DNA of 39,399 nt from the IMG/VR virus record IMGVR_UViG_3300048575_000460, positions 1-39,399 of that record; one strand, 5' to 3'. The DNA comes from a virus (taxonomy: Duplodnaviria > Caudoviricetes). Below, piece by piece: positions 1,582-34,615 of the stretch. Position 1 is the stretch's first letter. Every line of letters begins with the position of its first letter. Below the pieces are notes generated by a model. That model was not told the origin of the DNA and did not search any database. It saw only the letters and a list, made by a program, of their open reading frames with translations. The translations under genes were made by a program, and so were the position numbers.

Positions 1582-1668
1582 GCGAATCCTCCCGAGCAGC
1601 ATTTCCAGAAGGCCTGACTATAACACGCCCACCCGCCCAAACCCAGTCACAACAGATAAGCTACTGCC

Positions 1669-1681
1669 AATCAATGAGTTG
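1669..1681 (+). promoter_or_regulatory. IHF-type binding site in the divergent intergenic region
   Basis: AATCAATGAGTTG matches the consensus WATCAANNNNTTR exactly. Confidence 0.4.
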
Positions 1682-1783
1682 CAGGAAATCGCTACCACCC
1701 GCCCCCATAAACTGGAGATACAGGGTGCCGCCGAGCCCCTGGCCAGATCACAACGAATAACGAAGCACGAAAGAGGAACACCC

Positions 1784-2455
1784 ATGGCCACGTCCGCGCA
1801 AATCAAAGCCAATCAGCACAACGCCCAAAAATCCACCGGCCCGCGCACCGCCGAAGGCAAGTCCCAATCGGCCGCCAACAGCCGCAAAGAAGGCCTCACC
1901 GCCAAGACCCTCTGCATCCCCGACCACCAGCGCGAAGAGTTCGAAATCTACGAATTCGCCCTGCTTACCGAAACGAACCCACTCGGCCCCCTCGAACAGG
2001 AGTACTTCCAGCGCCTCCTCACCTGTGGCTGGATCCTCCGCCGAGCCCGAGCCCTCGAAATCCAGCTCCTCTTCCAAGGCGACACCATCAACGACGAAGG
2101 CGACGCCCAAAAACTCCACCGCATCGCCCGTTACCGCCGAGACCTCGAACGCTCCCACGACCGAGCCCTGGCCGAACTCCGCCAACTCCAAACCCAAAGA
2201 GCCCAAGCCGCCCACCCCGCCACCCCCCTAGCCCACCGCCAACTCGCCCCCAACCTCCCCCGCAATGCCGCCTGTGTTGTCGCCCCGTCTGCCGCCCCCG
2301 CCGTCTCCCCTGTCGCCGCCCCCGCCGACTCCCCTGATGTCCCGCGCCAGCGTCGGGCTGTCCCCGCCCAACCCGCCGCCTCACAAAACGAACCCAAAGC
2401 CGCGCGCCCGGATCCCAAACGCCCTGTTAACCCACACAAACCACGAGAGTTATAA
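1784..2455 (+). CDS. Conserved hypothetical protein (ANxxNAxKSTGPRTxEGK family), host gene
   Basis: ATG 1784 with AGAGGA upstream; MATSAQIKANQHNAQKSTGPRTAEGK N-terminal motif, helical core, Pro/Ala-rich tail. Confidence 0.8.
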   Translation: MATSAQIKANQHNAQKSTGPRTAEGKSQSAANSRKEGLTAKTLCIPDHQREEFEIYEFALLTETNPLGPLEQEYFQRLLTCGWILRRARALEIQLLFQGDTINDEGDAQKLHRIARYRRDLERSHDRALAELRQLQTQRAQAAHPATPLAHRQLAPNLPRNAACVVAPSAAPAVSPVAAPADSPDVPRQRRAVPAQPAASQNEPKAARPDPKRPVNPHKPREL

Positions 2456-2500
2456 TGGCGTCCGCCATGCAATGCGAGAAATCGGCGGCCCAACCCGCAT

Positions 2501-2601
2501 CTAGGCATCTCGATCAGCGGCCTCGCCCTCGAACTCCACGTCCCCGTAACCCGAGTCAGCCAGGTCGTCCACGAACGCCGCGCATCACCGTCGACACCGC
2601 C
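2501..2601 (+). pseudogene. higA: Frameshifted, truncated HigA-family antitoxin HTH remnant
   Basis: Translation from 2501 gives LGISISGLALELHVPVTRVSQVVHERR, then after a 1-nt shift ITVDTA; this matches the HigA pattern LAxxLxVPxxRxSxxxxxRRxITxDTA. No intact N- or C-terminus. Confidence 0.65.
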
Positions 2602-2693
2602 GACACGCCCCATTGGGCCAAGCGGCGAACCCCGCATGCAGCGGCCAAACACGCCGGCCAGTAAACCGTATAGAAAAGGGGAAAAAGGGAAAG

Positions 2694-2743
2694 TGGTGGG
2701 CTTGGCAGAACTCGAATCTGCGACCTCTACCGTGTCAAGGTGG
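2694..2743 (-). tRNA. 3' half of tRNA-Val(GAC); prophage attachment-site duplicate, not a complete tRNA
   Basis: Minus strand reads CCACC-TTGACAC-GGTAG-AGGTC-GCAGA-TTCGAGT-TCTGC-CAAGCCC-A-CCA: anticodon loop, T arm, 3' acceptor strand and CCA. No D arm or 5' acceptor strand beyond 2743. Confidence 0.85.
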
Positions 2744-2812
2744 CCTACGGTTTCAGATAGCCGAGGCTGAGAAGCAAACAAACGACTTGCATCTCCTGGA
2801 TCATCCCGTAGC

Positions 2813-2847
2813 GGGACAAATTCCGCTGATTTGGGACGCTCTGGGAC
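2813..2847 (+). repeat. Three GGGAC direct repeats, candidate integrase arm-type sites
   Basis: GGGAC at 2813, 2833 and 2843 (20 and 10 bp spacing), ~70 bp inside the att core. Confidence 0.5.
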
Positions 2848-2913
2848 ACAGTCCGGGCCCATCGCACTGGTTGCGAGCCGGAGTGATGGACGGGCCCGGG
2901 CACCGAGGTATCG

Positions 2914-3138
2914 ATGCACAGTCAGACTCTCACACTCCCCCCTGTAGCGCAACGGGCATCGCTGGATCTATCTCGATTGGAAGGCTCTATTTCGCGACTG
3001 GTCCAACAGCGCAATGCTTTGCGCCAGCGCCTTCAGGAGCTCCACGCGGAGAACGATGACCTGCGAGGTCGGGCGCTGAAGGCTGAGCGGAAGCTCACCG
3101 AATTAGCTGCTTCCATCCACGGTGGACTCAACAGATGA
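2914..3138 (+). CDS. Small coiled-coil phage protein
   Basis: GAGG upstream, heptad-like LVQQRNALRQRLQELHAENDDLR, ATGA overlap with next gene. Confidence 0.7.
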   Translation: MHSQTLTLPPVAQRASLDLSRLEGSISRLVQQRNALRQRLQELHAENDDLRGRALKAERKLTELAASIHGGLNR

Positions 3139-14196: not shown

Positions 14197-14562
14197 ATGA
14201 AGAGCATTCGTACGGCGATCTTTGTGGTCATTGTGTTGACATGGCTGGTCTACGGCCAGGTCCGGACGCACAACCAGAGTGGGAACTTCTTTGAGACGGT
14301 GCCGGCCACCGTGCCGACAACGATGACAGACGTGCTGACCGGGGATGTGCAGATGGAGGCTCTCCATCTCACTAGCCGTACAGACTCGCAGGTGCAGTGT
14401 TACGTGCAGGATCGGCAGGCAACGCCAGTGCCCATCATGGACGGCACGAAGCTGGATGCGCGAGCGGTGTTCGTCGTCCCGCTGAATGGGCGATTGGCAC
14501 CAGGCGGTTTGAGCTGGTACTGCACCGGTCCCGTGGCGGGGTGGCTGAAGGGACGCAGATGA
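14197..14562 (+). CDS. Small beta-rich protein with signal peptide in the head-decoration gene position
   Basis: GAGGA RBS; MKSIRTAIFVVIVLTWLVYG|Q; two Cys in the mature part; ATGA coupling to next gene. Confidence 0.75.
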   Translation: MKSIRTAIFVVIVLTWLVYGQVRTHNQSGNFFETVPATVPTTMTDVLTGDVQMEALHLTSRTDSQVQCYVQDRQATPVPIMDGTKLDARAVFVVPLNGRLAPGGLSWYCTGPVAGWLKGRR

Positions 14563-20330: not shown

Positions 20331-23300
20331 ATGCCCTCAACTTGGCTCATCACCATCGGCGCGGACAACGTCACCGATGAGGCGCAGTACGCCCATCGGA
20401 ATATCGCCAAGGGCTCGCTGTCCGTATCGCAGTCTCTGGGCGGCCGCCGCGCTGGCGTTATGACGGTGAATAGTCCAGACGGCACGTACGGCGTCGAGCC
20501 TGGACGCGAGGTCGCGATCTCTCGCAAGGGCGTGAAGCTGTACGGCGGCTTCGTGTGGTCTCAGGACCCGGTGATCGAGGCCGGTACGCCGATGGTGCGC
20601 AACGGCTTGACGCTGGTCGATTTCAACGCCTTCGCTGATTGGCGCCGCGCTGGAGAGCGCACGTGGAAGGATGCCACTGCTGAGCAGATTGTCGCCGATA
20701 TCGTGGCTTACGATCTCGATGCCGAAGGCATCACGAGTACCTTTGTGGCATGCGCCACGGTGATCAAGGGCGAGTACAAGATAGTTGGTTTCCCGAAGGT
20801 CTCGGAGGTCTTAAACGACCTGGCACAGCGCGCTGAGGCGCAATGGTACATCGATGAACACAAGAACCTGCGGTTCTTCGACGCCGATGCCACCGGCTAC
20901 GCCGCGCCGTTCGAGGTCACTCGCGACAATGTCACGGAGCTCAAGATCTCAAAGACGTTGGAGGACTACGCCAACAAGGTGAAGCTCAATCTCCGGCAGT
21001 ACCTCATGCCAGAGGCTGTCGAGCGATTCGATAGCGAGCATGCCAGTTATCCGCCGGATGGCGCCCGCCGCGACTATGCGGTGCCGTATCCGATCGCCTC
21101 AGCTCCGATTGTCACGCTGAACGGAACGAAGGTGGATCTCGGCCAGGCAGGCGTAGAGGCAGATGCGGAGAAGCCCTGGTTCTGGTCGCCTGGGTCGCAA
21201 TTCATCTCTCAGGTGAACACTGGTACGCCGTTGGCGGCAACCGACGTGCTGGTAGTGACGTATATCGGCATCGGCCAACTCACGGTAGACGCGACCAATG
21301 ATGCGGAAGTGGCGGCGCGCGCCGCGATCGAGGGCGGATCTGGTTTCCACGTCAAAGTCGTCTCGGTGGAGGATCAGAAGTCCCAGCAGCAGGCGGATGA
21401 GTTGGCGGCCTCGATTCTGGCGGCCGTCGACGAGTTGCCCGTCACGGTGAATTTCCGGACGAACTCTGAATTGGAGCCGGCATGCGATGTGCTGAAACCC
21501 GGTGACAAGTTGTGGGTACTCGGTAGCCAGTACATCGTACGCTCGATCAAGCTGCAGGATGATCCGAATAGCAAGGATCCTGATCTGCTCTGGCTCGATG
21601 CCGAAGCAGTTCGCGGTCCCATGCTGCAGGATTTAAGCGGGATTCTGCGCGACCTGGCATCAGGCGGCAACACCATCCCGGTCGGAGCGCCGGTGGACGA
21701 TTCCGCGGCACCGCCCCAAACGGCAACCGAAGGGGACAACATGATCCCCGATGGTTCGTTCGAGGTGGGGGGCTGGGATAGCAACACGGAGATCTCTGCT
21801 CGGGTGTCGCGCGTAACCGGCGGCTCTGTGCACGGCACCGCTCACCTTGAGGTGACCTCTGGTGCTGATACGGGCGGTGTGTACTCGGCCGCGTTCCCAG
21901 TGAGTGAGGGGCTGTCGATAGTCTTCGAGGGCTGGAGCCAGCGCATCGGCTTGGTGACCGATGGCCTGGTTATCGAAGCGCGGTTCTACGATTCGGCCGA
22001 AGGGGAGTTGTCGGGACTGCTGACTAAATCCATCCTGTCTGGCGACGATGCGGATTGGGTGAGCTTTAGCGTGGTCGGCACAGTCCCGGCTGGAGCAGTG
22101 ACAGCGCGGGTGTTCGCTTATGCGGGCGGCCATTCGACAGGCGTGCTGAAGGTGGATGGGCTTACGCTCCGGCGCTATTCCGCCATCGCGGCTCCGCCGC
22201 CGATGGTGAGCATCTCAGCAAGCGTGGCGCAGGATGGCTACGGTGTCGTCACCATCATCGCCGCGTGGGAGCAACCAGGAGACCTTGGCAGTACGACGGC
22301 GCACCAGATCAGCGCCGCATGGTTTGGCGCTGAAGACGCGATCGATCCAGTGGATGTGGTTCCGCTGAACGATCCGGATTACAGACTGGACGTCAGGGAT
22401 GGCGAGTTCATCTTCGGCGGCCCTGAGGCTGACAGTTGGATCGAGATTTGGGGGGCGAACAAGAACGGCGACGATAAATTCTCTGTTTTTGCCAAGTCGG
22501 CACGACACCTCTTGACTCCAGGTATTGCATTGTCCGATGCGCCAGGGGACGTCCAGCTTGACACCGCGGCGCCGGCGCTTATTTGGACGGGCGAGCTGCT
22601 CACGATTGTGCACCGCTATGCGCCCAACTACCCGACGATCACTCGCTTCTCTCCTACTCTCGGGGCGTATATCTCGATCGAGTATGGCGACGCGGTGACC
22701 GACTCCGTTGACCAGCCGTACACCGCGAATGCGGAACTCGATCCGCCCGACAATCTGCAGCAGTTCGAGGTCTCGATTCGCAAGTCGCAGATTATCGCAG
22801 TGGAGCCAGATGAGGACGGGAATCGGACGATCTACTTGCACGCCTGTGGATATGACGATAAGGGTAGGGTTGGCTACAAGCCATTCCCATATCAAGCGTC
22901 CTCCGCAACGCGGGCGATTTCGTTCACGCAGCATGATCTTGATGGGATTGAGGCCAGTGTGGCTCCCAAGGCCCCTGGCGGCGCAACGTTGAACATCACG
23001 GTCAACAACGCTGTTTCGCTGGAAAAATACGCGCCCACGTACTCTTGGACTCCAGCAATTTCCTTGGGTGGAACAGATCGATACGAGATCGAATCTGCGT
23101 TCGGTGCGACGGCTGGATTCGCGCCCACGGAATGGATCAATAGAACTCCTATCGCTGGAGGGGCAACTGCCTCATATACGGGTGGGCCATACCCGAAAAT
23201 CGAAATCGATCAGTACATCAAATTCCGAATCCGTGCCGGCAACAATGAGGGTGAGTGGACAGGCTGGGTAGTAATGACGGCGCCTGGCGCGCTTGTTCTG

Positions 23301-25673
23301 GCGAAGGGCATCTACTCCGTACCTGGCACGCCGATCATTGACTTTGCGCCATCCCTGGAGATTTTCAGTGGTTCCCGAGATGGGCGGATGTACGGCTTTA
23401 TCTGCTACTGGAAGGAGGCGGCAGATCTTTCCGCGACGGATAGCTACCAACTGGAGCGCAAATTCTGGGAGGACTCTCCAGGGACGATTGTCGCATCGGA
23501 ATGGGCTGCCCTGGGTGATGCGCCAAAGAACATCGCTGTGCTGGGAATTGCTTCTCGCCGGTTCGGTGGAGATTGGCCTCGGCAGGAAAAATCATACTTC
23601 GCAGAGTTTCGCATTCGTGGGAGGAATGCGGCAGGGACGGTGTTTTCGCCGTGGGCGTATAGTGCGACGAATGGTGCGCTTGGGTATCGAGAGGGATTGG
23701 TCGAAGTTGCGCCAAATCCGAATCCGCCGTCGCCAACCGGCCTCACGTTGACCATTGAAGTCGCGACTCTCAACGGCGCGCCGCAATACCGCTTCCGCGG
23801 CGAATTGGCTGCCAACGTCTCCCTCGGCACCACCAAGAGGTATGGGTGGGAGCATGCCGTTTTCGATGATGCTGCGGCATCGGAGGGCGGCGTACATCAG
23901 ATGACGCCGTGGCATGAGTGGGACAGTGGCCCTACGAGTGCACTGGTTAAGGCGTCGCCGTACTATGACAAAGCGCCTGGGACTTACTATGGCCGCATTC
24001 GGGTTGTGCCATATAACGAAGACGATAGCCCTGGAACACCGCGCTACTCGAACATTGCTGCAATCGCGCCAACGACTGGGCTAAATCTCGGCGCGGCCGA
24101 TACTGCAAGCATCGGGCCTGGGCTCTACCTCGATAGCGGCAAGGTTGGGAATGCAGCTCGCCAGAGCCTGATGGGCGGCGACATGGAGAAGGGCGCTGAG
24201 TCGGTGTGGGGTTTGCTGTCGGCGGCGTTTGTGGATGGTGTTGGAGTCAACGGATCTCGGGCAGTGCGCTTGTCGCCAGCAGGAGGATTTGCGCGCGTTG
24301 ACCAGTGGGTCACCGTGCAGCCGGGCGAATGGTACAAGGCCGTCTGGCAGGCGCGCAATCAGACGTCCGGGTCGATGCAGTCGTGGATCGCGTGGGCCGA
24401 CTCAGCGGGAGCATACCTGCCGAGTCCCAACACCAGCACTAATGGTCCCAACATTACTACGACCGCATACAGCGGCTACCAGATGTTGGTGCAGGCTCCG
24501 CCTGGCGCTACGCGAGCACAATTGGTGCCGGGCTACTCCACGGCCGCCAGTGGGACTGGAGACGTTGATGCGGTTGGCTGGGAAGGGATGCCCAAGCCAG
24601 CGGCGGGTGTGGGCTATGACTCCAGTGGGAATCTGGTAAGCACCCGCGATGGGATCAATGACCCGCAGTTCGCCTTCGGCGGAGGCGACTGGAAGACGGT
24701 CGATGGATCGGGGAATCTTGTTGTTCTGGATTCTCGGTTTGCTGTGGTAGCTGGGCATGGATTTGGCGGAACGGCGGCAATGCGGATGCAGGCCACCGGC
24801 AGCGGAGCCACGCAATTGCATCAGCGCCAGACTGCGGCCCCTGGATCCAATTGGCGCGTGAGGGGAATGGTCAAAAATGAGACCAACGGAAACTTCGCGG
24901 TGCAGTGCGCCTTCTACGATGCGGCCGGAGCGCAAATCGCGACTGGCCAACCGGTCACCCAGGTCTCGGCTGCGCCTGGCGTACAGCAGACTACGGTCAA
25001 CGCCCAGGCTGCTCCATCCGGCACAGTCAAGGTGGGGATCAAGGTCTACACGCTCGGAAATAGCGGTTATGCCTACGTAAGTATGATCTCTTTGGAGCCG
25101 GCCGATGCTGTTGGGGCGGCCCTTGCGCGGGTTGTGACCACCGGTGTTGTCGGTGTTGGAGACTACTCACTCACTGAGCAACTGATCGCGGATGCGCAGA
25201 TCACGGCGCGAACCTCGGCAAACAATTTAATCGGCCGCACAGCGCAGATTGATGTGGGCGTAATTGTGGCGGCCCACATCAATAGCCTGACAGCACTGGA
25301 CGCCTTCATCAGAAATTTGAGCGTGAGCCAGATCACGGGCGGTGGGTTTTTGAGTCTCACTTCGGCGCTGGATATTTCGACCGGCTTTGGGCATGCCGCC
25401 AGCATCAGCCAACTTGGTGCAAGTTTTGACGGCCCTGTAGTCGGGCCTTCGTTTTTCACATTTGGCGGATATGGAGTTGGAAGCCTCGGGAAGGGGTTTT
25501 TTACGGCCATCCAGGTTGGTGGATCTGATGGAGTATCGGGAACTGGTCCGGGAATTACTGTAACCAACGGAATAATCACCGGGTTAACATTTATGCCCCC
25601 ACGATTCAGTGGGACTGTTCCGGCTGGCCACGATATTACCGTGTCAGACGGAGTAGTAACAGGATGGATTTAG
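20331..25673 (+). CDS. Tail tip/hub and host-specificity protein with repeated FN3-like and carbohydrate-binding-like domains
   Basis: N-terminal hub pattern (LNDLA....WYIDEHKNLRFF); three CBM-like units (NMIPDGSFE, LMGGDME, INDPQF); FN3-like repeats; gpJ-like IVAAHINSL segment near the C-terminus. Confidence 0.85.
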   Translation: MPSTWLITIGADNVTDEAQYAHRNIAKGSLSVSQSLGGRRAGVMTVNSPDGTYGVEPGREVAISRKGVKLYGGFVWSQDPVIEAGTPMVRNGLTLVDFNAFADWRRAGERTWKDATAEQIVADIVAYDLDAEGITSTFVACATVIKGEYKIVGFPKVSEVLNDLAQRAEAQWYIDEHKNLRFFDADATGYAAPFEVTRDNVTELKISKTLEDYANKVKLNLRQYLMPEAVERFDSEHASYPPDGARRDYAVPYPIASAPIVTLNGTKVDLGQAGVEADAEKPWFWSPGSQFISQVNTGTPLAATDVLVVTYIGIGQLTVDATNDAEVAARAAIEGGSGFHVKVVSVEDQKSQQQADELAASILAAVDELPVTVNFRTNSELEPACDVLKPGDKLWVLGSQYIVRSIKLQDDPNSKDPDLLWLDAEAVRGPMLQDLSGILRDLASGGNTIPVGAPVDDSAAPPQTATEGDNMIPDGSFEVGGWDSNTEISARVSRVTGGSVHGTAHLEVTSGADTGGVYSAAFPVSEGLSIVFEGWSQRIGLVTDGLVIEARFYDSAEGELSGLLTKSILSGDDADWVSFSVVGTVPAGAVTARVFAYAGGHSTGVLKVDGLTLRRYSAIAAPPPMVSISASVAQDGYGVVTIIAAWEQPGDLGSTTAHQISAAWFGAEDAIDPVDVVPLNDPDYRLDVRDGEFIFGGPEADSWIEIWGANKNGDDKFSVFAKSARHLLTPGIALSDAPGDVQLDTAAPALIWTGELLTIVHRYAPNYPTITRFSPTLGAYISIEYGDAVTDSVDQPYTANAELDPPDNLQQFEVSIRKSQIIAVEPDEDGNRTIYLHACGYDDKGRVGYKPFPYQASSATRAISFTQHDLDGIEASVAPKAPGGATLNITVNNAVSLEKYAPTYSWTPAISLGGTDRYEIESAFGATAGFAPTEWINRTPIAGGATASYTGGPYPKIEIDQYIKFRIRAGNNEGEWTGWVVMTAPGALVLAKGIYSVPGTPIIDFAPSLEIFSGSRDGRMYGFICYWKEAADLSATDSYQLERKFWEDSPGTIVASEWAALGDAPKNIAVLGIASRRFGGDWPRQEKSYFAEFRIRGRNAAGTVFSPWAYSATNGALGYREGLVEVAPNPNPPSPTGLTLTIEVATLNGAPQYRFRGELAANVSLGTTKRYGWEHAVFDDAAASEGGVHQMTPWHEWDSGPTSALVKASPYYDKAPGTYYGRIRVVPYNEDDSPGTPRYSNIAAIAPTTGLNLGAADTASIGPGLYLDSGKVGNAARQSLMGGDMEKGAESVWGLLSAAFVDGVGVNGSRAVRLSPAGGFARVDQWVTVQPGEWYKAVWQARNQTSGSMQSWIAWADSAGAYLPSPNTSTNGPNITTTAYSGYQMLVQAPPGATRAQLVPGYSTAASGTGDVDAVGWEGMPKPAAGVGYDSSGNLVSTRDGINDPQFAFGGGDWKTVDGSGNLVVLDSRFAVVAGHGFGGTAAMRMQATGSGATQLHQRQTAAPGSNWRVRGMVKNETNGNFAVQCAFYDAAGAQIATGQPVTQVSAAPGVQQTTVNAQAAPSGTVKVGIKVYTLGNSGYAYVSMISLEPADAVGAALARVVTTGVVGVGDYSLTEQLIADAQITARTSANNLIGRTAQIDVGVIVAAHINSLTALDAFIRNLSVSQITGGGFLSLTSALDISTGFGHAASISQLGASFDGPVVGPSFFTFGGYGVGSLGKGFFTAIQVGGSDGVSGTGPGITVTNGIITGLTFMPPRFSGTVPAGHDITVSDGVVTGWI

Positions 25674-25680
25674 GAGAAAT

Positions 25681-25884
25681 ATGTCAGAAGAACAAATCAA
25701 CGACATCGCGGCGGACCTCGCCGACACCCTCGCCGCTGGCGGAGTGATGCAGTTTTCCATTGGCCGGAATCAGATCGGCCTGAGCATCAGCGTGGTGCAG
25801 TCCACAACGATTCGGGGCGTAACGGGGCCGTCTTCGAAGTCCTGGACGGTCCAGCCCTACAACCCGCCCGCCCCGCAGCAATGA
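25681..25884 (+). CDS. Hypothetical protein
   Basis: AGGAG RBS immediately after the tail gene stop. Confidence 0.7.
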   Translation: MSEEQINDIAADLADTLAAGGVMQFSIGRNQIGLSISVVQSTTIRGVTGPSSKSWTVQPYNPPAPQQ

Positions 25885-25964
25885 CCCTCTCAATCATCAC
25901 TCTTGCGGCCGCCGCTATGGTGCTGCTGGCGGTGCTGGTGAACGCGTGGAGGCGCATGAGATGA
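25881..25964 (+). CDS. 27-aa single-transmembrane peptide (lysis regulator candidate)
   Basis: MTLSIITLAAAAMVLLAVLVNAWRRMR; ATGA overlaps at both ends. Confidence 0.55.
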   Translation: MTLSIITLAAAAMVLLAVLVNAWRRMR

Positions 25965-26374
25965 TGCAACTCTCTCCCAACTTCCTTCGAGAAGAATTCC
26001 GGTGTCCGTGCTGCCAGCAGGCGGTGGTGAGCCCACGGCTGGTGATCGCGTTGGAGGAACTTCGCGCTAAGCTGCGCGCTCCCATCACGATCAACGCTGG
26101 CGGCGGATATCGCTGTCCGAGGCATAACGCGGCGGTCGGTGGGGCGCGTGCCAGCCAGCACTTGCTCGGTACGGCCGCCGACATCAGCAGCCGGAATATC
26201 TCCGGCCGCGATCTCTACGAAATGGCCTGCCAGGTTCCCAGTATCAATGGGCTTGGTCTGGCTCCCACTTGGATGCACGTGGACGTGCGGCCAGGCCCGC
26301 GCGTTCGTTGGATGTACCAATACGATCCGGGCCGGAAGGTCTGGATACAAACCCCTTGGAAGGAAGAAAAATGA
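25961..26374 (+). CDS. Endolysin, Peptidase M15A-type zinc peptidase
   Basis: LSPNF...EFRCPCC, GYRCPRHNAAVGGARASQHLLGTAADI, MHVDVR; GGAGG RBS before ATG 25961. Confidence 0.92.
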   Translation: MMQLSPNFLREEFRCPCCQQAVVSPRLVIALEELRAKLRAPITINAGGGYRCPRHNAAVGGARASQHLLGTAADISSRNISGRDLYEMACQVPSINGLGLAPTWMHVDVRPGPRVRWMYQYDPGRKVWIQTPWKEEK

Positions 26375-27069
26375 GCAAATGGAAATTGTCCGAGGTCATG
26401 CTGCTCGGCACGGCGCAGACGGCCAGCGAGAACTGTACGCTGGGGATTGCCCGGGCGGTGAAACGATTTCTGACGTTGGTCGGCATCGGTACCTTTTCGG
26501 ATGAGCCGTTCGTCCTGCTGGCCCCGCCGGGCATGGGCATCGGTGACAACAACCGGGTGCCGCTATCCGCGATTGAGGGGCCAATCCCTGAGGATCTTCA
26601 ACTCCACTGGAACGTGATGTTCTCCCTGGAGGTCGGCGGCGAGACCTACACCAACACCGTCGCCCTGGCCAGCATACCCAAACGCTTGACCGACTACGGG
26701 GACCTCACCAACAGCCTGGCCCACTTCATCCGCGAGCTGACGCAGATCGGCGAGACGCAGAAGATGCCCCAGATCATCGGATCGGCCGAAGGCCTGGCGT
26801 TGTACTGGGCGATGTCGTTCGGCTACCCGTATCCGCTCACGCAAGCGCCGCCGCCTCCGCCGCCTCCCGTGGTTCCGGCGCCAGCGCCGTATGAGCCGGC
26901 CATCAGTCCGGTGGGCGAGGAGGACGATCCCGGCGAGTTCGCGACACTGCCGGGGAGTCAGCTCTATCCCAACGGCGCCAAGGTGAAGGAGGCCCGCGGC
27001 GTGTTTATCAAGCGGTTCCGACCCGGATTCGGCGGGGGCTTCGCCTATTGGGCGCCGGTGCAGGAGTAG
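26371..27069 (+). CDS. Hypothetical protein with proline-rich linker inside the lysis cassette
   Basis: ATGA overlap with endolysin stop; coding-like codon use; APPPPPPPVVPAPAP. Confidence 0.7.
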   Translation: MSKWKLSEVMLLGTAQTASENCTLGIARAVKRFLTLVGIGTFSDEPFVLLAPPGMGIGDNNRVPLSAIEGPIPEDLQLHWNVMFSLEVGGETYTNTVALASIPKRLTDYGDLTNSLAHFIRELTQIGETQKMPQIIGSAEGLALYWAMSFGYPYPLTQAPPPPPPPVVPAPAPYEPAISPVGEEDDPGEFATLPGSQLYPNGAKVKEARGVFIKRFRPGFGGGFAYWAPVQE

Positions 27070-27096
27070 GGCAGTCGCAGATAAGGAGCGCGATCT

Positions 27097-27333
27097 ATGA
27101 AATGGCTCAAGCGAGTGTTCGTGGACAACTGGCGGACCACGGCGGCCGCCGTGATCTGTGTCGGTGGCGAGGTGACGAAGGCGATCGCGCCAGAGCACGC
27201 GGCCATCTGCGACACGGTGAAAACCGTCGCCATCATCTCCGGCATGTTGAGTGCCACTGACAGCAAGCTGATGGATCAGGTCGCCGGGCAGGTGAAGGGC
27301 ATCATCGGCACGGTGAAGAATCCGCCCAAGTAG
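27097..27333 (+). CDS. Holin-like small membrane protein
   Basis: TAAGGAG RBS; NWRTT...GMLSATD pattern with two moderately hydrophobic helices; near endolysin. Confidence 0.6.
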   Translation: MKWLKRVFVDNWRTTAAAVICVGGEVTKAIAPEHAAICDTVKTVAIISGMLSATDSKLMDQVAGQVKGIIGTVKNPPK

Positions 27334-27392
27334 CGCCTGGCTGTTGTGTCAACCCATGTCCGCGAGCTCCGGCTCGCGGACTTCAAAATCCC

Positions 27393-27785
27393 ATGAAAGA
27401 TAGGCCGCGGATGCAAGTAACAATCCTGAGTCTCGCTCTCTCCTCGCCCGTTTTCGCGGCCTTTGTCCAGGCGGCTCCAACATCTCCCGCCTGGGAGAAC
27501 TACGGCATCGCCGGCCTGGCAGCGGCCGCCTTTTACATGTTGGTGATGCAGCTTTTGAAACAGGCGGTGGCTGATCGAAAGGCATCGGAGGCACAGTTGA
27601 GCGCCCTCCTCCTCCAGATGAAAGAGGAGCGAGCGGCAAGCGAGGAGAGGTTTGGCGGATTGGTGGAGCAAGTGCTCCGCGGTGAGGAGCGGGCGGTGGA
27701 TGCTCTGACCGATGTGAGTAGGGAAGTGGGCGAGATGAAGGTGGCTCTTGGTAAGTGGTCGCCGCGGGAAGTGCGCGGAAATTGA
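27393..27785 (+). CDS. Membrane protein with coiled-coil tail (holin- or spanin-like)
   Basis: Hydrophobic N-terminus, TM segment YGIAGLAAAAFYMLVMQLL, charged coiled coil. Confidence 0.65.
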   Translation: MKDRPRMQVTILSLALSSPVFAAFVQAAPTSPAWENYGIAGLAAAAFYMLVMQLLKQAVADRKASEAQLSALLLQMKEERAASEERFGGLVEQVLRGEERAVDALTDVSREVGEMKVALGKWSPREVRGN

Positions 27786-27794
27786 GGTGAAGGC

Positions 27795-29138
27795 ATGTAC
27801 CGATTCGTTGTGCTGATCATGATTCTGTTGGCGCCTCGTCTGGCGCCGGCACAGGTATGTTTCGGGTGTTCGTCAGGCGGCGGCGGCGTAGCCAATGTGT
27901 TTCAGACGACGGCGGGAGCATCCACGTCGATGACGCTAGATATCACGTCGCTGAACTTGGCGGCGATCAGTCCAGCGCTGTTCGCGTGCCGCACGGCGAC
28001 CGCGCCGGTTGCATGGACGTCGTATTCGGTTGCTGGGTCCAATCCCATCGCGAGCCTGACGCTCAATTACGCCAGTACATCCGGAGTGACGTGTCAGGTG
28101 AATGCGAGTGGCGGGGCAGGGCCGGCCGGCCCGACTGGTTCGCCGGGCGCTGCGGCTTCGGTCGCGGTGGGTACGGTGTCGACCGGGGCGGCGGGATCGG
28201 CCGCCGCTGTGACGAATGTGGGGACGGCCGCCGCGGCGGTGTTGAATTTTGCCATCCCGCAAGGCGCAAAAGGGGATAAGGGTGATACGGGGTCGCAGGG
28301 CATCCAGGGGATTCAGGGCCCAGCGGGAGCGCCAGGGTCGAGCGTTGGAGCAACGGTGGTATCTCAGGCGAGCGTTACGATCACGCACAACTGGGGAAGC
28401 CTCTACTACTCATCTGAATGTGTGGATTCCACAGGGGCCGTTGTTCGACCAGAAACAACCGTAAAGACGAGTAACGCGATGACCTGGAATTTTGCGCCGG
28501 CGTTCACGGGTAGTTGCTCCGTCACCTCTGGTGGCTCCGGATCGAGCGGCGGCGGTGCAGTGGCCAGTGTGTTTGGGCGTACGGGCGCGGTGGTGGCGGC
28601 GGCGAACGACTATGCGTTCTCGCAAATCAGCGGCATTGCGCAAGTGGCCCAGGGCGGTACAGGTGGCTCCACTGCAGCAGCGGCTCGACAGGCTCTGTTG
28701 CCGGCGTATGCGGGAAATGGAGCGAAGTGCCTGGCGCTGAACAGTGCCGGCACAGATGCGGAGTGGGCAGTGTGCGCGAGTGGCGGCGGTGGTGGCGCGG
28801 TCTCTGGGATGGGATTGCTTGGCGACGGATCACCCGAGAATCCATTCCGTGTGAATCCCGCCACGGTGCCGACGTATTTCAGTGCCTCGGGTAGTCTGAG
28901 CTTTTCCACCTTCGGTGGCACGGGATCGTGCGAGGAGCAGAGCCTTGCCTTGGCGGGGGCCGCCGTGGGCGATGTGGTGAAGTTCAGTTTGCCCAACACT
29001 CTGCCGGCGGGAATCGTGGTTGGGGCGGAGTATGTGAGCGCGGCCGGGCAGGTGACCTTGCGGCTATGCCGATTGGGCGGGAGCACCGGCACGATTTCGG
29101 GCGCGGCGTTTACGGTGCAGATCTTGAGGAGCTTCTGA
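27795..29138 (+). CDS. Signal-peptide-bearing collagen-like phage fibre protein
   Basis: MYRFVVLIMILLAPRLAPA|Q; G-X-Y repeats; fibre motifs GTVSTG...VTNVGT...LNFAIPQG, ITHNWG, VASVFGRTGAV, QGGTGGSTAAAARQAL; 10 Cys. Confidence 0.85.
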   Translation: MYRFVVLIMILLAPRLAPAQVCFGCSSGGGGVANVFQTTAGASTSMTLDITSLNLAAISPALFACRTATAPVAWTSYSVAGSNPIASLTLNYASTSGVTCQVNASGGAGPAGPTGSPGAAASVAVGTVSTGAAGSAAAVTNVGTAAAAVLNFAIPQGAKGDKGDTGSQGIQGIQGPAGAPGSSVGATVVSQASVTITHNWGSLYYSSECVDSTGAVVRPETTVKTSNAMTWNFAPAFTGSCSVTSGGSGSSGGGAVASVFGRTGAVVAAANDYAFSQISGIAQVAQGGTGGSTAAAARQALLPAYAGNGAKCLALNSAGTDAEWAVCASGGGGGAVSGMGLLGDGSPENPFRVNPATVPTYFSASGSLSFSTFGGTGSCEEQSLALAGAAVGDVVKFSLPNTLPAGIVVGAEYVSAAGQVTLRLCRLGGSTGTISGAAFTVQILRSF

Positions 29139-30103
29139 TGAAACAACGATCCATCCATCTCGCGATTGTGCTGCTGGTGTTGCTGGCGGTAGTGAACCGC
29201 CACGCGATTGCTGATCGAGCGCAGGGCGCCATTGAGTTCGCCATACAGTCGGCCACGCCGGCGGCCGCGGCGGCTGGCTTTGAAAAGCTCTACCCGAAGG
29301 CCGACGGAAAGTGGTACCGACTGAACTCCTCTGGCGTCGAAACGGAGATCGCGGCCGGGGGTGGAGGCACGAGCTTTGACCCCGTGGATATGCGATCCGT
29401 CTGGTGGAGAGACGACTTTTTCGCGCTCGTCCCCTCCGGCGGCTCCATGTACTCCGACCAGACTTGGAGTTATCGCAATATCGGAAGCCCATCCGGGCAG
29501 GCCATCACGCAAGGCAACGGGACGGTGGACAATCCCGGCGTGGCGCAGATTGCCACGGGGACTGTGGCCAACACCGGGTTGATTCTCCACACCGATAGTT
29601 ACAACTATGACCATGGTCGATTCAATCTGCGCGCGACCGGACAGGAGGCATGCGTGGCGGTGGCGCTCTCGGCCACCACGCAATTCAAGGCGCGCATCGG
29701 AGTTACGCTGACCGGCGAGGGGTACAACGTCTCGGATTCTGAAAACAAAGCATGGTTCTACTACAACGCAACGTCGACAGAGTCCACGTGGCAGATGAGA
29801 GTGGGGGCATACGGTGGCACAGCGGGGACCTACGACACCGGCGTGACTGGCGACACCGGATTCCATAGTGCCTGTTGGCGCACAGACGGAACCAAGGTGT
29901 ACCTGCGATGGGACGGAGGAACCGAGCATTCGTTTTGCCTGTCGGGGTGCGACACGGCCGCCACGGTCCCGGATGGCAGCAGCAACAAATACAGCCTAGG
30001 GTTCGCGGCCATAACGCTCGACACCACGAGTAAGAATCTGCTGGTCGACTTTGCGGCCTATAACCGTACCGTCTCAACGGCCAATGCCAGGAAGAGGAAC
30101 TGA
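29138..30103 (+). CDS. Signal-peptide-bearing fibre-tip/lectin-like protein
   Basis: ATG 29138 (TGATG overlap, GAGGAG RBS); MKQRSIHLAIVLLVLLAVVNRHAIA|D; P...AG..KLYPKADGKWY..NSSGVE fibre motif; ConA-like beta C-terminus; 4 Cys. Confidence 0.8.
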   Translation: MKQRSIHLAIVLLVLLAVVNRHAIADRAQGAIEFAIQSATPAAAAAGFEKLYPKADGKWYRLNSSGVETEIAAGGGGTSFDPVDMRSVWWRDDFFALVPSGGSMYSDQTWSYRNIGSPSGQAITQGNGTVDNPGVAQIATGTVANTGLILHTDSYNYDHGRFNLRATGQEACVAVALSATTQFKARIGVTLTGEGYNVSDSENKAWFYYNATSTESTWQMRVGAYGGTAGTYDTGVTGDTGFHSACWRTDGTKVYLRWDGGTEHSFCLSGCDTAATVPDGSSNKYSLGFAAITLDTTSKNLLVDFAAYNRTVSTANARKRN

Positions 30104-33100
30104 TGCGGTACCTACTGCCTGTCCTTGTGTTGCTGCTCACTGGCATGGAGACCAGTCTGCACAACGGCGTCCGCATCTATGATGCGTCGGGTGCTGACCA
30201 GGTCAACCAGCCTCGGACGATTCACCGGTATTTTGCGCAGGGGGAGTTTGCTGGGGTGTATCCCAAGCCGCGAGTCGGAGGTAGTGTGCCGGCGTCTTGG
30301 CAGGTCGATGTGGAGTCCATCTGGCCGGATGGGAGTGTCATGGCGGCATTTATCAGCCTGCCGGTTTCAATCCCAGCCAATGGGAATGTCATCGTTGATT
30401 TCGTGTCCGACGTCAATCCATGCCACCTCGGCAATCGCGCGACGTGTCAGGCCGCCGCGCTCGATCAGGCGGGCATGCTCGCATTTGCTGGTGGCACGTG
30501 GGATGCGGCGATTTCGGGCACGGCCAACGGGGTCACGTATTCTGCGTCAGCTCGAACTATCCTCACAACGGGAGCGCTGTCTTATCGTCTTCGGGGACCG
30601 TACGCGACGCAGGTGATCGTGGAGGATTTCACGCGGCCGGATCCAGCGTTCGATTTTGGTTGGGAGTATGTGGCGGGCGCCTGGCAAGCGCCGTCGGCCA
30701 GCATCTACAAGAGCGTCCACCCGCTCTTTGTGGCGACGTTCTACAGCGGCTGGTCAGGTGTGGAGGTGGAGGCGATCGCGCTGAATGCGGCTACGACCAG
30801 GTTGCAGCGGCAGGTGTTTGATCTGAGCGTCACTCGCAGCGGTGGCGCTACGGTGTATTCAAAGGCCGGGTGGGATATGCCCCGGAATACGGGGTTTTCG
30901 CGCTATTTCTGGGATGGCGCGGCGCCGGCGGCGGTGCAGGTGGATTGGAATCTGCGGTACATGATCTACTCTCGTGTTCTACCGCCGTTTGACTGGCGCC
31001 AGCAGCGACAGGGGAGCACCGATATCGCTGGCTACAACAGTAGTGTCGGCGGTGGCGACCCGCAGGACTGTAATCCTGGGAATGGCTCCTGTGGCAATTG
31101 GCAGCAATACATCCCAGGGACCGGCGGCCGCGGCGACATCGGCCTGATCCCGCGGTGGTATGTTACCTATGGCTATGCGATGGGGGACACGGCGACCTAC
31201 ACGGTCGCGCAGAGAAAAGAGCTGTACGACAAGGGTGTGCTGGGCAACGCGGACGCCGGCCTGACGATCCCGATGCTCTACCTGGAGTACGACAATAGCG
31301 CATTGCGGGACTCGCCAACGGACGGTCAGAGGTATTGGTTTGATGAGGGACACACGGCTCCTGCATTCGGGCGGGTGCCATCAACTTACGCCAGGCCGGA
31401 ATGGCTCTCCGGAGAGCGGGAGCCGTGGGATGGCACTGACAAGATGGTCCCGGTGTGTACGAGTGGGCCGTGCTCAGGGAATCGTGCGCCTGATACGACC
31501 TACACGAAGGGCTGGACAATTGATGCCGCGCATATGCCATCGCCCTTCGCGGTGCCGTATATGTTGTCCGGCCGCTACTCGTATTTGCTCGGGCAGTTCG
31601 GGTTGGCTGCTTACATGGCCGCTAAGGAGTCATACGGCTGCTACTACTATTACTCGCGATGCAGCGATTGGAGTCTGTTCTACCTCTGGGGGAATGTGAG
31701 GGCGTCGGCCTGGTCACTCCGCGAAGTCGGGATGGCTGCGCTGCTGGCGCCATCGGCGCGGCCGGAGAAGGCGTATTTCACTCGGATTCTGCAAAAGAAT
31801 GACGAGATGTGGGAGGGGGTGTTGGGCGTGTCCGGAGGCAACGCGGGCATCACCACAGGACAGAATTTCTGCCGCGGGGCGGATCTCGGCTCGGCCTCTG
31901 TCACGCACACCAGCTCAAGCAGCACTGACTGGAACGGGTATCTGACGTACAAGCTAAACGGCGTCACAAAGACGCTTGGTCTGCCAGATCCAGCCTATTC
32001 GGTGACCAGTGTCACGGTCGACAGTGTCGCGAAGACAGTGGGGGTGCGAGGTGTAGATTCCGGGCGGGACTGGTACTACACGCCGGGTGGATTCGCGGTG
32101 TTTCAAGACGATGCGGCAAGTCCAGTCGCCGTGGGAAGCACCGTAGTAGTTGCGTATCGCAAGACATCTGTCGTCTCCCCATGGTGTTCCGGCCGGCACT
32201 TGCAGATGAAGGGTCAGCCGAACAACATCGGGCATCAGCTTTGGGCGGAGCAGCGCGCCTACGGCTCCTTCATGCTGGATTACTTCCTATGGACAAAGAA
32301 GTTCATTGAGGACACCGGCGCATTCCGCCATTCGACCACGGGGCAACCGTTGTTCAGGTTCAGCAATGCCGAGACCGCCAAGTATGTGATTGGGTGGGCC
32401 ACTGATCCAGGGGCCAATCCGCACTATGCGGATTACTACACCAGCCCAACGATTGGGCAGAGCAACGCACTGCCGGCGACGTGGGCGGAGTATATGGCCC
32501 TCTTTCCTAAGTCCAGCACGTTGGCTGCTGGAGTCACGAATTCGGCAACCACGCTGTACGTGAATGATGCGCACACGTCGGCTCCGACGCCGTTGGCGGA
32601 GTTCTTCGTGCCGAGCTTGGTCCGGATTGAAAATGAGTGGGTCCAGATCTGTGGGTGGACTGAGAATGCACCCACGAATCAGAGCACGCTCACCGTATGC
32701 GCCGGCGGCCGAGGCATGTTCGGCACGGCGGCGGTCGCGCATTCGGCTGGCGCGGCATTCGACTGGACGCGCCAAGCCTGGAATGGGAACGCGGTCGGGC
32801 ACTCATACCCGAATCTGTGGGCGAGCGCAGTGGCGATGTATGAAGAGTACGTGCTGCCGTCCGGCAGCGGCCGCCGGGCCTGGGAACGGGTGATGGGTAA
32901 CCTCGCTGGGCAACAGAGCCGCATGACGGCTCCTGAGTATGCCTTTGTGCCGCGCGATAGGATCACGGCCGTCCGCGTCGCACCTGGTGCTGGTGCGCTG
33001 GCGCTCACGTGGGTGGCTCCATCTGGCGCGCCGTGCAAGGTGGGGGTGGCGAGCACGGCGCCAAGCAGCTCGGACGATGCGGGGGACGCTAACTCCACAG

Positions 33101-33210
33101 CGGCCGGTAGGGCACATAGCTTCTCTGCCTCGGGCCTCAGCTCGGGGGCGGTCTACTGGCGGATCACATGCGGCACAGCGCGGGCTAATGGGATAGCGAT
33201 GATCCCGTAA
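30103..33210 (+). CDS. Large exported multidomain protein, possible polysaccharide lyase-like enzyme with inserted virion domains
   Basis: MRYLLPVLVLLLTG signal-like start; QVDV...WPDGSV motif; aromatic-rich helical core (DAAHMPS...PYMLSG, RASAWSLRE); RGMFGTAAVAHSAG virion-type module; 14 Cys. Confidence 0.8.
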   Translation: MRYLLPVLVLLLTGMETSLHNGVRIYDASGADQVNQPRTIHRYFAQGEFAGVYPKPRVGGSVPASWQVDVESIWPDGSVMAAFISLPVSIPANGNVIVDFVSDVNPCHLGNRATCQAAALDQAGMLAFAGGTWDAAISGTANGVTYSASARTILTTGALSYRLRGPYATQVIVEDFTRPDPAFDFGWEYVAGAWQAPSASIYKSVHPLFVATFYSGWSGVEVEAIALNAATTRLQRQVFDLSVTRSGGATVYSKAGWDMPRNTGFSRYFWDGAAPAAVQVDWNLRYMIYSRVLPPFDWRQQRQGSTDIAGYNSSVGGGDPQDCNPGNGSCGNWQQYIPGTGGRGDIGLIPRWYVTYGYAMGDTATYTVAQRKELYDKGVLGNADAGLTIPMLYLEYDNSALRDSPTDGQRYWFDEGHTAPAFGRVPSTYARPEWLSGEREPWDGTDKMVPVCTSGPCSGNRAPDTTYTKGWTIDAAHMPSPFAVPYMLSGRYSYLLGQFGLAAYMAAKESYGCYYYYSRCSDWSLFYLWGNVRASAWSLREVGMAALLAPSARPEKAYFTRILQKNDEMWEGVLGVSGGNAGITTGQNFCRGADLGSASVTHTSSSSTDWNGYLTYKLNGVTKTLGLPDPAYSVTSVTVDSVAKTVGVRGVDSGRDWYYTPGGFAVFQDDAASPVAVGSTVVVAYRKTSVVSPWCSGRHLQMKGQPNNIGHQLWAEQRAYGSFMLDYFLWTKKFIEDTGAFRHSTTGQPLFRFSNAETAKYVIGWATDPGANPHYADYYTSPTIGQSNALPATWAEYMALFPKSSTLAAGVTNSATTLYVNDAHTSAPTPLAEFFVPSLVRIENEWVQICGWTENAPTNQSTLTVCAGGRGMFGTAAVAHSAGAAFDWTRQAWNGNAVGHSYPNLWASAVAMYEEYVLPSGSGRRAWERVMGNLAGQQSRMTAPEYAFVPRDRITAVRVAPGAGALALTWVAPSGAPCKVGVASTAPSSSDDAGDANSTAAGRAHSFSASGLSSGAVYWRITCGTARANGIAMIP

Positions 33211-34161
33211 TCAGCCGAAGATGAGAAGCAAGGCAGTGATCGAGCCGACTGTGCAGAGAAATCCCATCACTAGGCAGCCACAGCCAGAGCTGGTGCTTTC
33301 GGTCGCATATGAGCGAATTCCGGCGCCGGCGCGCTGGCTTGTAGGGGCACGGTAGGAATCCGATTGTTGTGATTCCGGCGCAGACTGTAGAGCAGGGAGT
33401 TGGTGGGGGCCCACCGCGTCGCGAATTGTTGTGTCGCTACGGTAGATTGATGCGCTGATGCCCGGAATCTGATAGCGCCGGCCGTTTGAGATCCATTGAA
33501 TCACCGCCTTTTGGAAGAAGCCGCGGTCCAGATATGGAGCGATCTCGGCCGCGTCTTCCCGTGGGACGTAGCCGATCTGATAGCCCTGGCGTAGCAATAT
33601 GCGAATGGCATTGGAATCATGGGAATTGTAGCGTTCTCGCACCAGGTAGACCGTGTCCCCGGTCTTGGCATACGCGGAGACCACGTCGCCGCGCCCTTCA
33701 TGCGACACGCCGGCCGTCTGGAACCGCAGGGTCTTTACGGGCTTGTCTTTGGCGATCGCCTCTTTCTCGGCGGCCTTGCGCTGTTCGGCGTCGTCTCGGT
33801 CTTTGGCGCGCGCGATCGCTTCGGTTGCTTGCCGCCGTTCTTTGGCGGCTTTCCGTAGATCAGGAGGTAGGACTTTTTCGAGAGCCTTGTAGATCTCAGT
33901 GCGCTCCTGATGAGTGATTTGGCCGTCATCCAGTACCTGATGGAGAATTGTCCGTAGGTACTCAATGGACGGAAGCCCCGCCACCTCGCGATCATCGAGC
34001 CACTGATTCAGCATCTTGGCTTCGTCGTCGGTTATGATGCCGTCCGCTGTGACCGTTTCAATGAGCATCAGTAACTCAGCGGCGGCGCCGCTGAGTATTT
34101 CCTTGCGGCTGATGGCTTGTCTCTTTTGTCGCGGTGTTACAGATGGGGTTTCTTCACCCAT
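33211..34161 (-). CDS. Moron protein: TerB-like helical domain + HIRAN domain + C-terminal TM anchor
   Basis: ATG 34161 with AAGGAG upstream; TADGIITDDE / LDDGQITHQE repeats; HIRAN AGVSH...LVRERYNSHDSNAI...IGYVPR; hydrophobic C-terminus. Confidence 0.85.
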   Translation of the reverse strand: MGEETPSVTPRQKRQAISRKEILSGAAAELLMLIETVTADGIITDDEAKMLNQWLDDREVAGLPSIEYLRTILHQVLDDGQITHQERTEIYKALEKVLPPDLRKAAKERRQATEAIARAKDRDDAEQRKAAEKEAIAKDKPVKTLRFQTAGVSHEGRGDVVSAYAKTGDTVYLVRERYNSHDSNAIRILLRQGYQIGYVPREDAAEIAPYLDRGFFQKAVIQWISNGRRYQIPGISASIYRSDTTIRDAVGPHQLPALQSAPESQQSDSYRAPTSQRAGAGIRSYATESTSSGCGCLVMGFLCTVGSITALLLIFG

Positions 34162-34174
34162 TTTTGCATTCTCC

Positions 34175-34408
34175 TTACCGTGGCTCAGAGGGAGGGTGGC
34201 TCTGTGCGGCGGCCTGAGAGCTAGGTTGCTTTCCGATTTCACTGATCGCGCGAGCGATAACGTATGGGATGATTGCCCATGCACAGGCCATCGCGGCGCC
34301 GGCGGCCTGCTGGGGCGCCGATATTTCACGCGCTGTGACGATGGCCACAAATTCCGCCGCTCCGACGGTCGCTCCGATCGCGGCTAATGCCCAGAATACC
34401 TTTGCCAT
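34175..34408 (-). CDS. Small two-TM membrane protein (SAPQQAA motif)
   Basis: Two hydrophobic segments flanking SAPQQAAGAA...IIPYVIARA; 13 nt upstream of the HIRAN gene. Confidence 0.8.
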   Translation of the reverse strand: MAKVFWALAAIGATVGAAEFVAIVTAREISAPQQAAGAAMACAWAIIPYVIARAISEIGKQPSSQAAAQSHPPSEPR

Positions 34409-34615
34409 TCCATCTCGCTTTCGGCGTTTATTTTGTCAAAAGAAACCACTCGAGGCAACGGTCGCATGGGTAATCCATGCCGCATGGTGCGGAATGAGAT
34501 GTCAGGCACAGGGGCAGTCCGCGGATATCCACGAGGCGGCAAGGTGCGCCAGTTAGTACGTGTCTCTCTGGGCTAGCGCCAGCGTCCAATCTCTTACCGC
34601 TCATGGACGCCACCT

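Follow-up and report, generated by a model that had tools for sequence, protein, structure and literature searches.

What use does a tailed phage have for fibre-like proteins that carry signal peptides? This question is raised by three consecutive genes, here called g1, g2 and g3, in the IMG/VR virus record IMGVR_UViG_3300048575_000460 (Duplodnaviria; Caudoviricetes), of which we analysed positions 1 to 39,399; this whole stretch of 39,399 nucleotides is referred to as the window. The three genes encode a fibre-like protein, a predicted lectin and a predicted lyase-like protein, each starting with a predicted leader (Table 1). An initial annotation, made from the letters alone, had proposed that these products are exported, fold with disulfides and join the virion at or after lysis, or are displayed or released by the lysogen. 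Our analysis revealed that the cassette is real and conserved, and that phages and their hosts very likely pass it to each other. Our preferred explanation, which we hold tentatively and with a probability of roughly 0.4, is that its exported products form an appendage that binds and cuts exopolysaccharide and docks on particles after lysis.

Layout and leaders of the cassette

The three genes are translationally coupled as had been proposed: the TGATG overlaps lie at 29138 and 30103. Their products contain each of the four phage fibre or virion motifs quoted in the initial annotation. The leaders of g1, g2 and g3 have the basic N-terminal end and hydrophobic core of signal peptides, with a mean Kyte-Doolittle hydrophobicity over 11 residues of 3.06, 3.65 and 2.59, respectively, versus 1.04 for the 1780 amino acid (aa) tail-tip protein (20331-25673), for which the absence of a hydrophobic leader was confirmed. 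Leaders were scored by a strict rule of our own together with conservation, and not by SignalP. The rule was positive for seven of the 45 genes called in the window, including g1 to g3 in succession and the holin-like gene before them. No twin-arginine motif was found in the three leaders.

The cleavage site is clear for g1 and g2. In g3 it is atypical (LTG followed by M); g3 relatives read PLLA followed by LDNS at the cleavage site, and the cut in g3 may fall a few residues later. One database record (P0004) starts g3 at Met15, downstream of the leader. A GAGGA ribosome site and coupling by TGATG were found for Met1 alone of the two start codons, and Met15 is without a ribosome site. Wrong start codons as the source of the leaders were rejected on these features of Met1 and on the leaders kept in relatives.

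Counting of cysteines (Cys) reproduced the numbers given for g1, g2 and g3 (10, 4 and 14) and the five of the tail-tip protein. The mature parts of g1 to g3 contain 28 Cys in 1745 residues versus 5 in 1780 for the tip protein (Fisher p 3e-5), which is about six times denser, and their density is about twice that of the other called phage genes (65/8045; p 0.004).

A crude scan of positions 25500-34500 detected no promoter-like site on the + strand. Together with the 9-base gap that separates g1 from the holin-like gene, this led us to read g1 to g3 as the end of the late operon. GC content and GC content at third codon positions (GC3) of the cassette are like those of the rest of the phage, and this phage-like composition ruled out a recent foreign insertion.

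Conservation of leaders and cysteine pairs

A check proposed in the initial annotation, the conservation of leaders across relatives, gave a positive result. The strict rule detected a leader in 75 of 90 g3 relatives, and many of the 15 misses look truncated at their start. In the consensus of the g3 alignment the leader is short and its cleavage site typical, g2 relatives likewise retain leaders, and leaders ending in signal-peptidase-like sites are kept in relatives down to about 30% identity.

Alignment of 61 g3 proteins revealed that the Cys pairs 107/115, 513/520 and 850/866 strictly co-occur or co-vanish in all of them (both present in 57, 11 and 41 proteins, both absent in 4, 50 and 20, respectively). 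Three further pairs are invariant, and for the pair 452/457 both Cys were found in 53 proteins and a single Cys in eight. The fibre module of g1 has both of its Cys in 30 of the 31 copies from analysed loci, the exception being a leaderless collagen fibre of a T4-like phage (locus L022). Among 30 clusters of database matches to this module, a hydrophobic leader was present in 19 of 22 with the Cys pair versus one of eight without it (p 4e-4), and counted per protein (87 matches) in 58 of 77 versus one of ten, with a search profile that favoured Cys-bearing matches. Such a tracking of leader presence by the Cys pair is expected if the proteins are exported to an oxidising compartment.

Weighing against export and disulfides are the atypical cleavage site of g3, the record that begins g3 at Met15 and the total Cys count, leaders included, which is even in only 47 of the 90 g3 relatives. 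Conservation and covariation nevertheless strongly support this part of the initial proposal: export of g1 to g3 appears very probable, and their folding with disulfides only slightly less so.

Fibre-, lectin- and lyase-like parts

The g1 protein is mosaic: it combines fibre-type modules with a short collagen run and a tip domain, which is Cys-paired and common to all relatives. The collagen stretch, from which we assume a trimer, is short and its Pfam match (E 0.0027) lies below the cut-off; the PHROG tail-fibre matches of g1 rest mainly on this run. Relatives match PTR and virion-protein families.

The predicted model of g2 (mean predicted local distance difference test score (pLDDT) 78.6) is a jelly roll, and a lectin function is predicted. 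Structurally it is closest to SO2946 (PDB: 2a5z; E 1.8e-8), and GH16 enzymes and lectins rank behind. In a table of PMC4112983, SO_2946 is entered among the LambdaSo phage proteins, with a carbohydrate-binding module and adjoining the tail-fibre gene SO_2945. Pfam, NCBIfam and PDB sequence searches revealed no family for g2 or g3, with weak FN3 matches at most.

For g3, the predicted model (pLDDT 93.2; predicted template modelling score 0.93) resembles the PL26 lyase PcRGLX (PDB: 5xq3, 5xqj) over about 520 residues (517 aligned; Z 9.2-9.4, root-mean-square deviation (rmsd) 4.4-4.9, 8-9% identity; Foldseek E 3e-4) and is not a beta-helix. The sequence of g3 itself gave no Pfam match at E 0.1, and so no PcRGLX domain above the cut-off; of 24 g3 relatives scanned, two distant ones passed the Pfam PcRGLX_1st cut-off. 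From the distant fold likeness and the gene context, g3 is likely a sugar-cutting, lyase-like protein, which does not imply membership of PL26. The description of all three products as fibre-like holds for g1 and the start of g2, and not for g3, which is mainly of the PL26-lyase-like enzyme fold. Two tail-protein domains are inserted into g3 (Table 1), and its residues 950-1035 are FN3-like. The g3 core family has 1078 representatives at E 0.001, most of them aligning to residues 20-580 only, and g3 family members were also found in host exopolysaccharide loci.

Occurrence in phages and host chromosomes

A search of IMG/VR revealed ten loci with a g3 relative, of which two are identical to the window, seven have further leader-bearing fibre-like genes and one (L027) is a distant lone gene. 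The seven cassette phages include podovirus-like ones (LPD38 or SU10-type genes), one siphovirus-like and one T4-like phage (gp32, neck and gp15 genes). In the latter, the 16-kb fragment L022, the GC of the cassette is as low as that of the phage itself (0.37-0.38). Late genes surround the cassette in seven of eight non-identical viral loci. It adjoins an endolysin gene in L005, L021, L023, L024 and L025 and lies among head, neck and fibre genes in L022 and L026. Further leader-bearing genes, encoding beta-helix, DUF2341-LamG and Ig-domain proteins, are added to the cassette in L005, L021, L025 and L029, and the DUF2341-LamG protein has a leader in L021 and none in L023. The complete phage of L005 (G405) has two more leader-bearing fibre-like genes between its terminase and head genes (L111 62-3774). 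Neither g3 nor the tip domain of g1 had a relative among 50,697 GenBank phage records, and a viral single-protein scan returned only the already known T4-like contig. A metagenome scan detected 38 further loci, many of them short.

Genome contigs contained 15 loci with g3, all of them with a g1 relative upstream. An XrtA/PEP-CTERM-type O-ligase gene, or a deacetylase together with a nucleotide-sugar dehydrogenase gene, was found near 15 of 15 chromosomal loci versus 0 of 8 viral loci, and not in the window. In Bryobacterales (Acidobacteriota), the cassette has a regular chromosomal place next to XrtA/PEP-CTERM polysaccharide genes. Within this order, members of the g3 family were present in 34 of 401 sampled genomes, two candidates being scored per genome. 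The named relatives of the cassette belong to this group, which points to Bryobacterales as the host of the provirus. Two records titled Arcobacter (L012, L016) have 65% GC and a Bryobacteraceae gene order and are probably mislabelled. Exopolysaccharide is probably the target of g1 to g3.

Probable exchange between phages and hosts

An IQ-TREE tree, made from 28 rows selected from 71 (L024, which was too short, and also L027 were left out), showed phage and host copies interleaved. Judged by branch support, the seven phage rows need six label changes, all six forced by well-supported branches, and they group together in 0 of 200 bootstrap trees. On this mixed tree, a single phage origin of all cassette copies was rejected. 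Four chromosomal cassettes hold a leaderless gene with close relatives in phages L021 and L025, and the tail-tip insert is present in many chromosomal g3 copies.

A 3.7-kb contig (L032), called phage solely from its likeness to the T4-like L022, is nearly identical to L022 in g1 (173/176) and g3, whereas its g2 lectin domain is only 39% identical. This lectin domain is 79% identical to that of the chromosomal L031 and has a GC3 of 0.53 versus 0.20 around it. One phage seems to have recently taken a host-type lectin domain, as in receptor-binding tip swaps. The ratio of nonsynonymous to synonymous substitution rates (dN/dS) was 0.06-0.25 in all eight pairs tested. From the sequences compared, repeated exchange of the cassette between phage and host is very likely to have occurred, and exchange in both directions is likely.

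Genomic setting of the cassette

The window contains a near-complete provirus of siphovirus type, with genes for terminase, portal, HK97-type capsid, head completion, tail tube, tape measure, the 1780-aa tail tip and an M15 endolysin. An integrase gene lies at its right end and a host amidohydrolase gene at its left end. The GC skew is strongly negative left of about 3 kb (window 1-2950) and positive beyond, which likely marks the left provirus boundary. The features of the cassette and its surroundings are listed in Table 1. The holin assignments are based on hydrophobicity, position and a weak match to PHROG 2658 (E 0.003).

Table 1. Coordinates of the g1-g3 cassette, its domains and related features in the window
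Feature	Position	Strand	Description
Counterpart of g3 insert 1 in the 1780-aa tail-tip protein	21060..21263	+	Cys-free; same BLASTP and profile matches as g3 insert 1
Lysis region	25961..27785	+	M15 endolysin, 232-aa gene, 78-aa and 130-aa holin-like genes; directly upstream of g1, same strand
g1 (447 aa, 10 Cys)	27795..29138	+	Signal peptide (predicted; about 1-19), short run of collagen (156-181), fibre module with paired Cys (189-247), repeats of fibre type (256-298), C-terminal tip domain with paired Cys (364-447)
g1 predicted signal peptide	27795..27851	+	g1 start 9 bases past the stop of the holin-like gene; GAGG upstream
g2 (321 aa, 4 Cys)	29138..30103	+	Signal peptide (predicted; about 1-25), short segment of fibre type, jelly roll of ConA/GH16 type (about 85-311); predicted lectin
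g3 (1035 aa, 14 Cys)	30103..33210	+	Signal peptide (predicted), three-part fold like PL26 (PcRGLX), two tail-protein domains as inserts, FN3 at the C-terminal end; seven Cys pairs
g3 insert 1 (residues 620-688)	31960..32166	+	Homologous to residues 244-311 of the phage's own leaderless tail tip; BLASTP E 1e-7; profile iE 8e-11 among 843 proteins
g3 insert 2 (residues 801-890)	32503..32772	+	Predicted fold like a phage JBD30 baseplate domain; VIA Z 9.8, rmsd 1.9, 77 aligned; PHROG 1101 tail protein E 1.8e-5

Several neighbouring genes were observed in addition. The 232-aa gene between the endolysin and holin-like genes (window 26371-27069) encodes a proline-rich, leaderless protein of no family. 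In a similar position, a gene that looks unrelated is present in other phages, and one such family has been carried into chromosomal cassettes. On the opposite strand a HIRAN-domain gene (window 33211-34350, - strand) has a stop that abuts the stop of g3. Directly after the major capsid gene, a 121-aa gene (window 14197-14562, + strand) encodes a protein with a strong leader and two Cys, a candidate for an exported head decoration or docking piece. Its Atlas look-alikes are unnamed and mostly viral clusters (0.89-0.90), a search for its relatives returned only identical copies, and L068, considered as a relative, was rejected as a chance match.

Comparison with described systems

Known phage fibres, to our knowledge, fold in the cytoplasm without leaders. 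The cassette resembles tailed-phage fibres and lectins such as LambdaSo SO2946 in its fibre modules, collagen, jelly-roll tip, late-operon position and tip swapping, and differs from usual tailed-phage fibres in its conserved leaders. A literature search, mostly without subscription journals, revealed no description of leader-bearing phage fibres or of this cassette. The accessible parts of PMC3556154, PMC5723332 and PMC5900883 describe neither exported fibres nor a cluster of this kind. The exported tailed-phage proteins named in the accessible sections of a review are endolysins and the T4 antiholin (PMC6116005).

Two cellular systems are similar in part. The MAT fibres of Bdellovibrio (PMC10769870) combine a signal peptide with a phage-fibre-like body, as the cassette does. 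They differ in being chromosomal predator adhesins with a shared domain of about 130 aa after the signal peptide, many of them with an S74 chaperone and eight without it, whereas the cassette belongs to phage late operons, is coupled to a lyase-like protein and has no S74 Pfam match in g1 to g3. WceF of Pantoea stewartii (PMC7949094) is an exported phage-protein-like glycanase in an exopolysaccharide cluster, like the host copies of the cassette (15/15) and unlike the copy in the window. It is a single host gene for a beta-helix trimer exported by the twin-arginine (Tat) route, whereas g3 has a leader of Sec type, is predicted to fold like PL26 and moves together with fibres among phages and their hosts. 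In its overall fold g3 is like the PL26 exo-rhamnogalacturonan lyase PcRGLX, to which it adds the two tail-domain inserts and FN3.

A proposed appendage attached after lysis

In the explanation that we prefer, the products of the cassette would be made from the late operon, sent out by the Sec route of the host and likely folded with disulfides in the periplasm. After lysis they would dock on finished particles as an appendage, with g1 and g2 likely binding and g3 likely cutting the host exopolysaccharide. Lectin and lyase variants that already fit this polysaccharide would come from the exopolysaccharide locus of the host. The link to the virion is drawn from the likeness of g2 to SO2946 and from g3, with its domain from the phage's own tail tip and its baseplate-like domain. 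Docking is favoured by these tail-derived domains, the tip swap of receptor-binding type, the late position, the residence in a T4-like phage and the gene content of G405. In this complete podovirus-like phage no long leaderless fibre-like gene was seen among the genes of at least 150 aa outside L005 that our own gene caller returned, and the sole PHROG fibre match among 14 genes scanned carries a leader. The domain that follows the leader of the g1 relative in L023 resembles tail-fibre anchors in the Atlas (0.88 for phage_tail_N, 0.82 for Head_binding), which we regard as a lead only.

Several observations weigh against this explanation. No virion-docking or anchor domain was recognised in g1 to g3 of the window, and the tip protein has two internally repeated domains of about 140 aa (residues 1285-1430 and 1445-1600), possibly carbohydrate-binding, which could bind the receptor alone. 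Leaderless fibre-like genes are also present in three relatives (L022, L023/G406 and L026). The same trio occurs in sipho-, podo- and T4-like phages and in host chromosomes, which is easier to explain without a particle; the copies in chromosomes keep synteny and evolve under purifying selection (dN/dS 0.06-0.15, five pairs), and WceF and the MAT fibres, the analogues that have been described, are proteins of cells. The resemblance of g3 to PL26 is remote (Z 9.4, rmsd 4.9, 8% identity), and its lyase role is predicted from fold and gene context.

A close rival, only somewhat less probable, is that the proteins are exported and directed to the same target and never dock. A self-contained complex that accumulates in the periplasm late in infection and is released at lysis would then loosen the exopolysaccharide of the host, helping the progeny to get away and to find neighbouring cells. 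The tight coupling to the lysis genes in the window and the adjoining endolysin gene in five phage loci (L005, L021 and L023 to L025) fit such a role, which would work across unrelated particle types, agrees with the lack of a recognised docking domain in g1 to g3 and has a parallel in the host copies in exopolysaccharide loci, like WceF. However, free fibres and a non-catalytic lectin would be of little obvious use to the phage. The tail-tip- and baseplate-type domains of g3, the lectin-domain swap of receptor-binding kind and the position among head, neck and fibre genes in L022 and L026 argue for the particle instead.

Accessory genes typically sit after the lysis genes, and T4-like phages are usually strictly lytic. 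The position of g1 to g3 in an integrated element, with an integrase gene and a flanking host gene, would suit lysogenic conversion, in which the lysogen displays a host-type set of fibre, lectin and lyase that alters adhesion or biofilm or masks the receptor from other phages. The chromosomal orthologues are intact and under selection, and MAT fibres (PMC10769870) are a cellular precedent. This alternative is nevertheless improbable given the 9-base gap to the late operon, the negative promoter scan of 25500-34500, the GC and GC3 that match the rest of the phage and the long-resident copy on the 16-kb fragment of a T4-like phage.

That the leaders are wrong starts or membrane anchors of ordinary cytoplasmic fibres, whose Cys are oxidised after lysis, would agree with the Met15 record, the atypical g3 cleavage site and the virion disulfides that occur, for example, in Milano (PMC11972413), but is very improbable with leaders and signal-peptidase-like sites conserved to about 30% identity, Cys pairing that follows leader presence and a Met15 that lacks a ribosome site.

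A gene transfer agent-like cluster of the hosts

The hosts are not free of particle genes. In the three genomes examined (G106, G148 and G001; loci L104, L105, L107, L108 and L109), a gene transfer agent (GTA)-like cluster of terminase, portal, P22-type coat, tail tube, DUF2460-like and Phage-tail_3 hub genes lies at a fixed chromosomal site beside proline dehydrogenase and penicillin-binding protein genes. No fibre genes were present in the cluster of the two genomes read to its end. Next to the cluster of G106, on the opposite strand, a 1010-aa gene with non-contractile tail sheath (NCTSP) domains was observed (L108 10010-13042). An argument that host copies work without particles, made from genomes lacking HK97 capsid and terminase genes, was dropped once the GTA-like cluster had been found.

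Hosts that keep the cassette also keep the GTA-like cluster. The GTA-like capsid gene is present in 318 of 401 genomes of the order versus 34 of 401 for the g3 family, so that this co-occurrence proves nothing and most such particles are without the cassette, which weighs against docking. For RcGTA, the available part of PMC6854486 describes head spikes (GhsA/GhsB) and fibres encoded at loci apart from the structural cluster, and a title cited there states that RcGTA spikes bind capsule. These spikes are a possible parallel for chromosomal cassette copies that would serve the Bryobacterales GTA-like cluster, in likeness of arrangement; no export signal is mentioned for them in that part of the source. 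The wider idea, that phages and GTA-like particles of Bryobacterales alike acquire after lysis an appendage that recognises exopolysaccharide and was built in the periplasm, with the host locus as a swap library of matching lectin and lyase domains, we consider rather unlikely.

Implications for tailed particles and their hosts

Tailed particles are taken to be built wholly of cytoplasmic proteins. A Sec-routed, disulfide-folded set of late-operon proteins in three unrelated phage types would break this rule at least for synthesis. If docking is true, it would be a new, second, extracytoplasmic assembly route for tailed particles, and categorically new. Phages could track the exopolysaccharide types of their hosts by borrowing the matching domains directly from the exopolysaccharide locus of the host, and adsorption and host range would become testable in an abundant, poorly studied phylum of soil and sediment.

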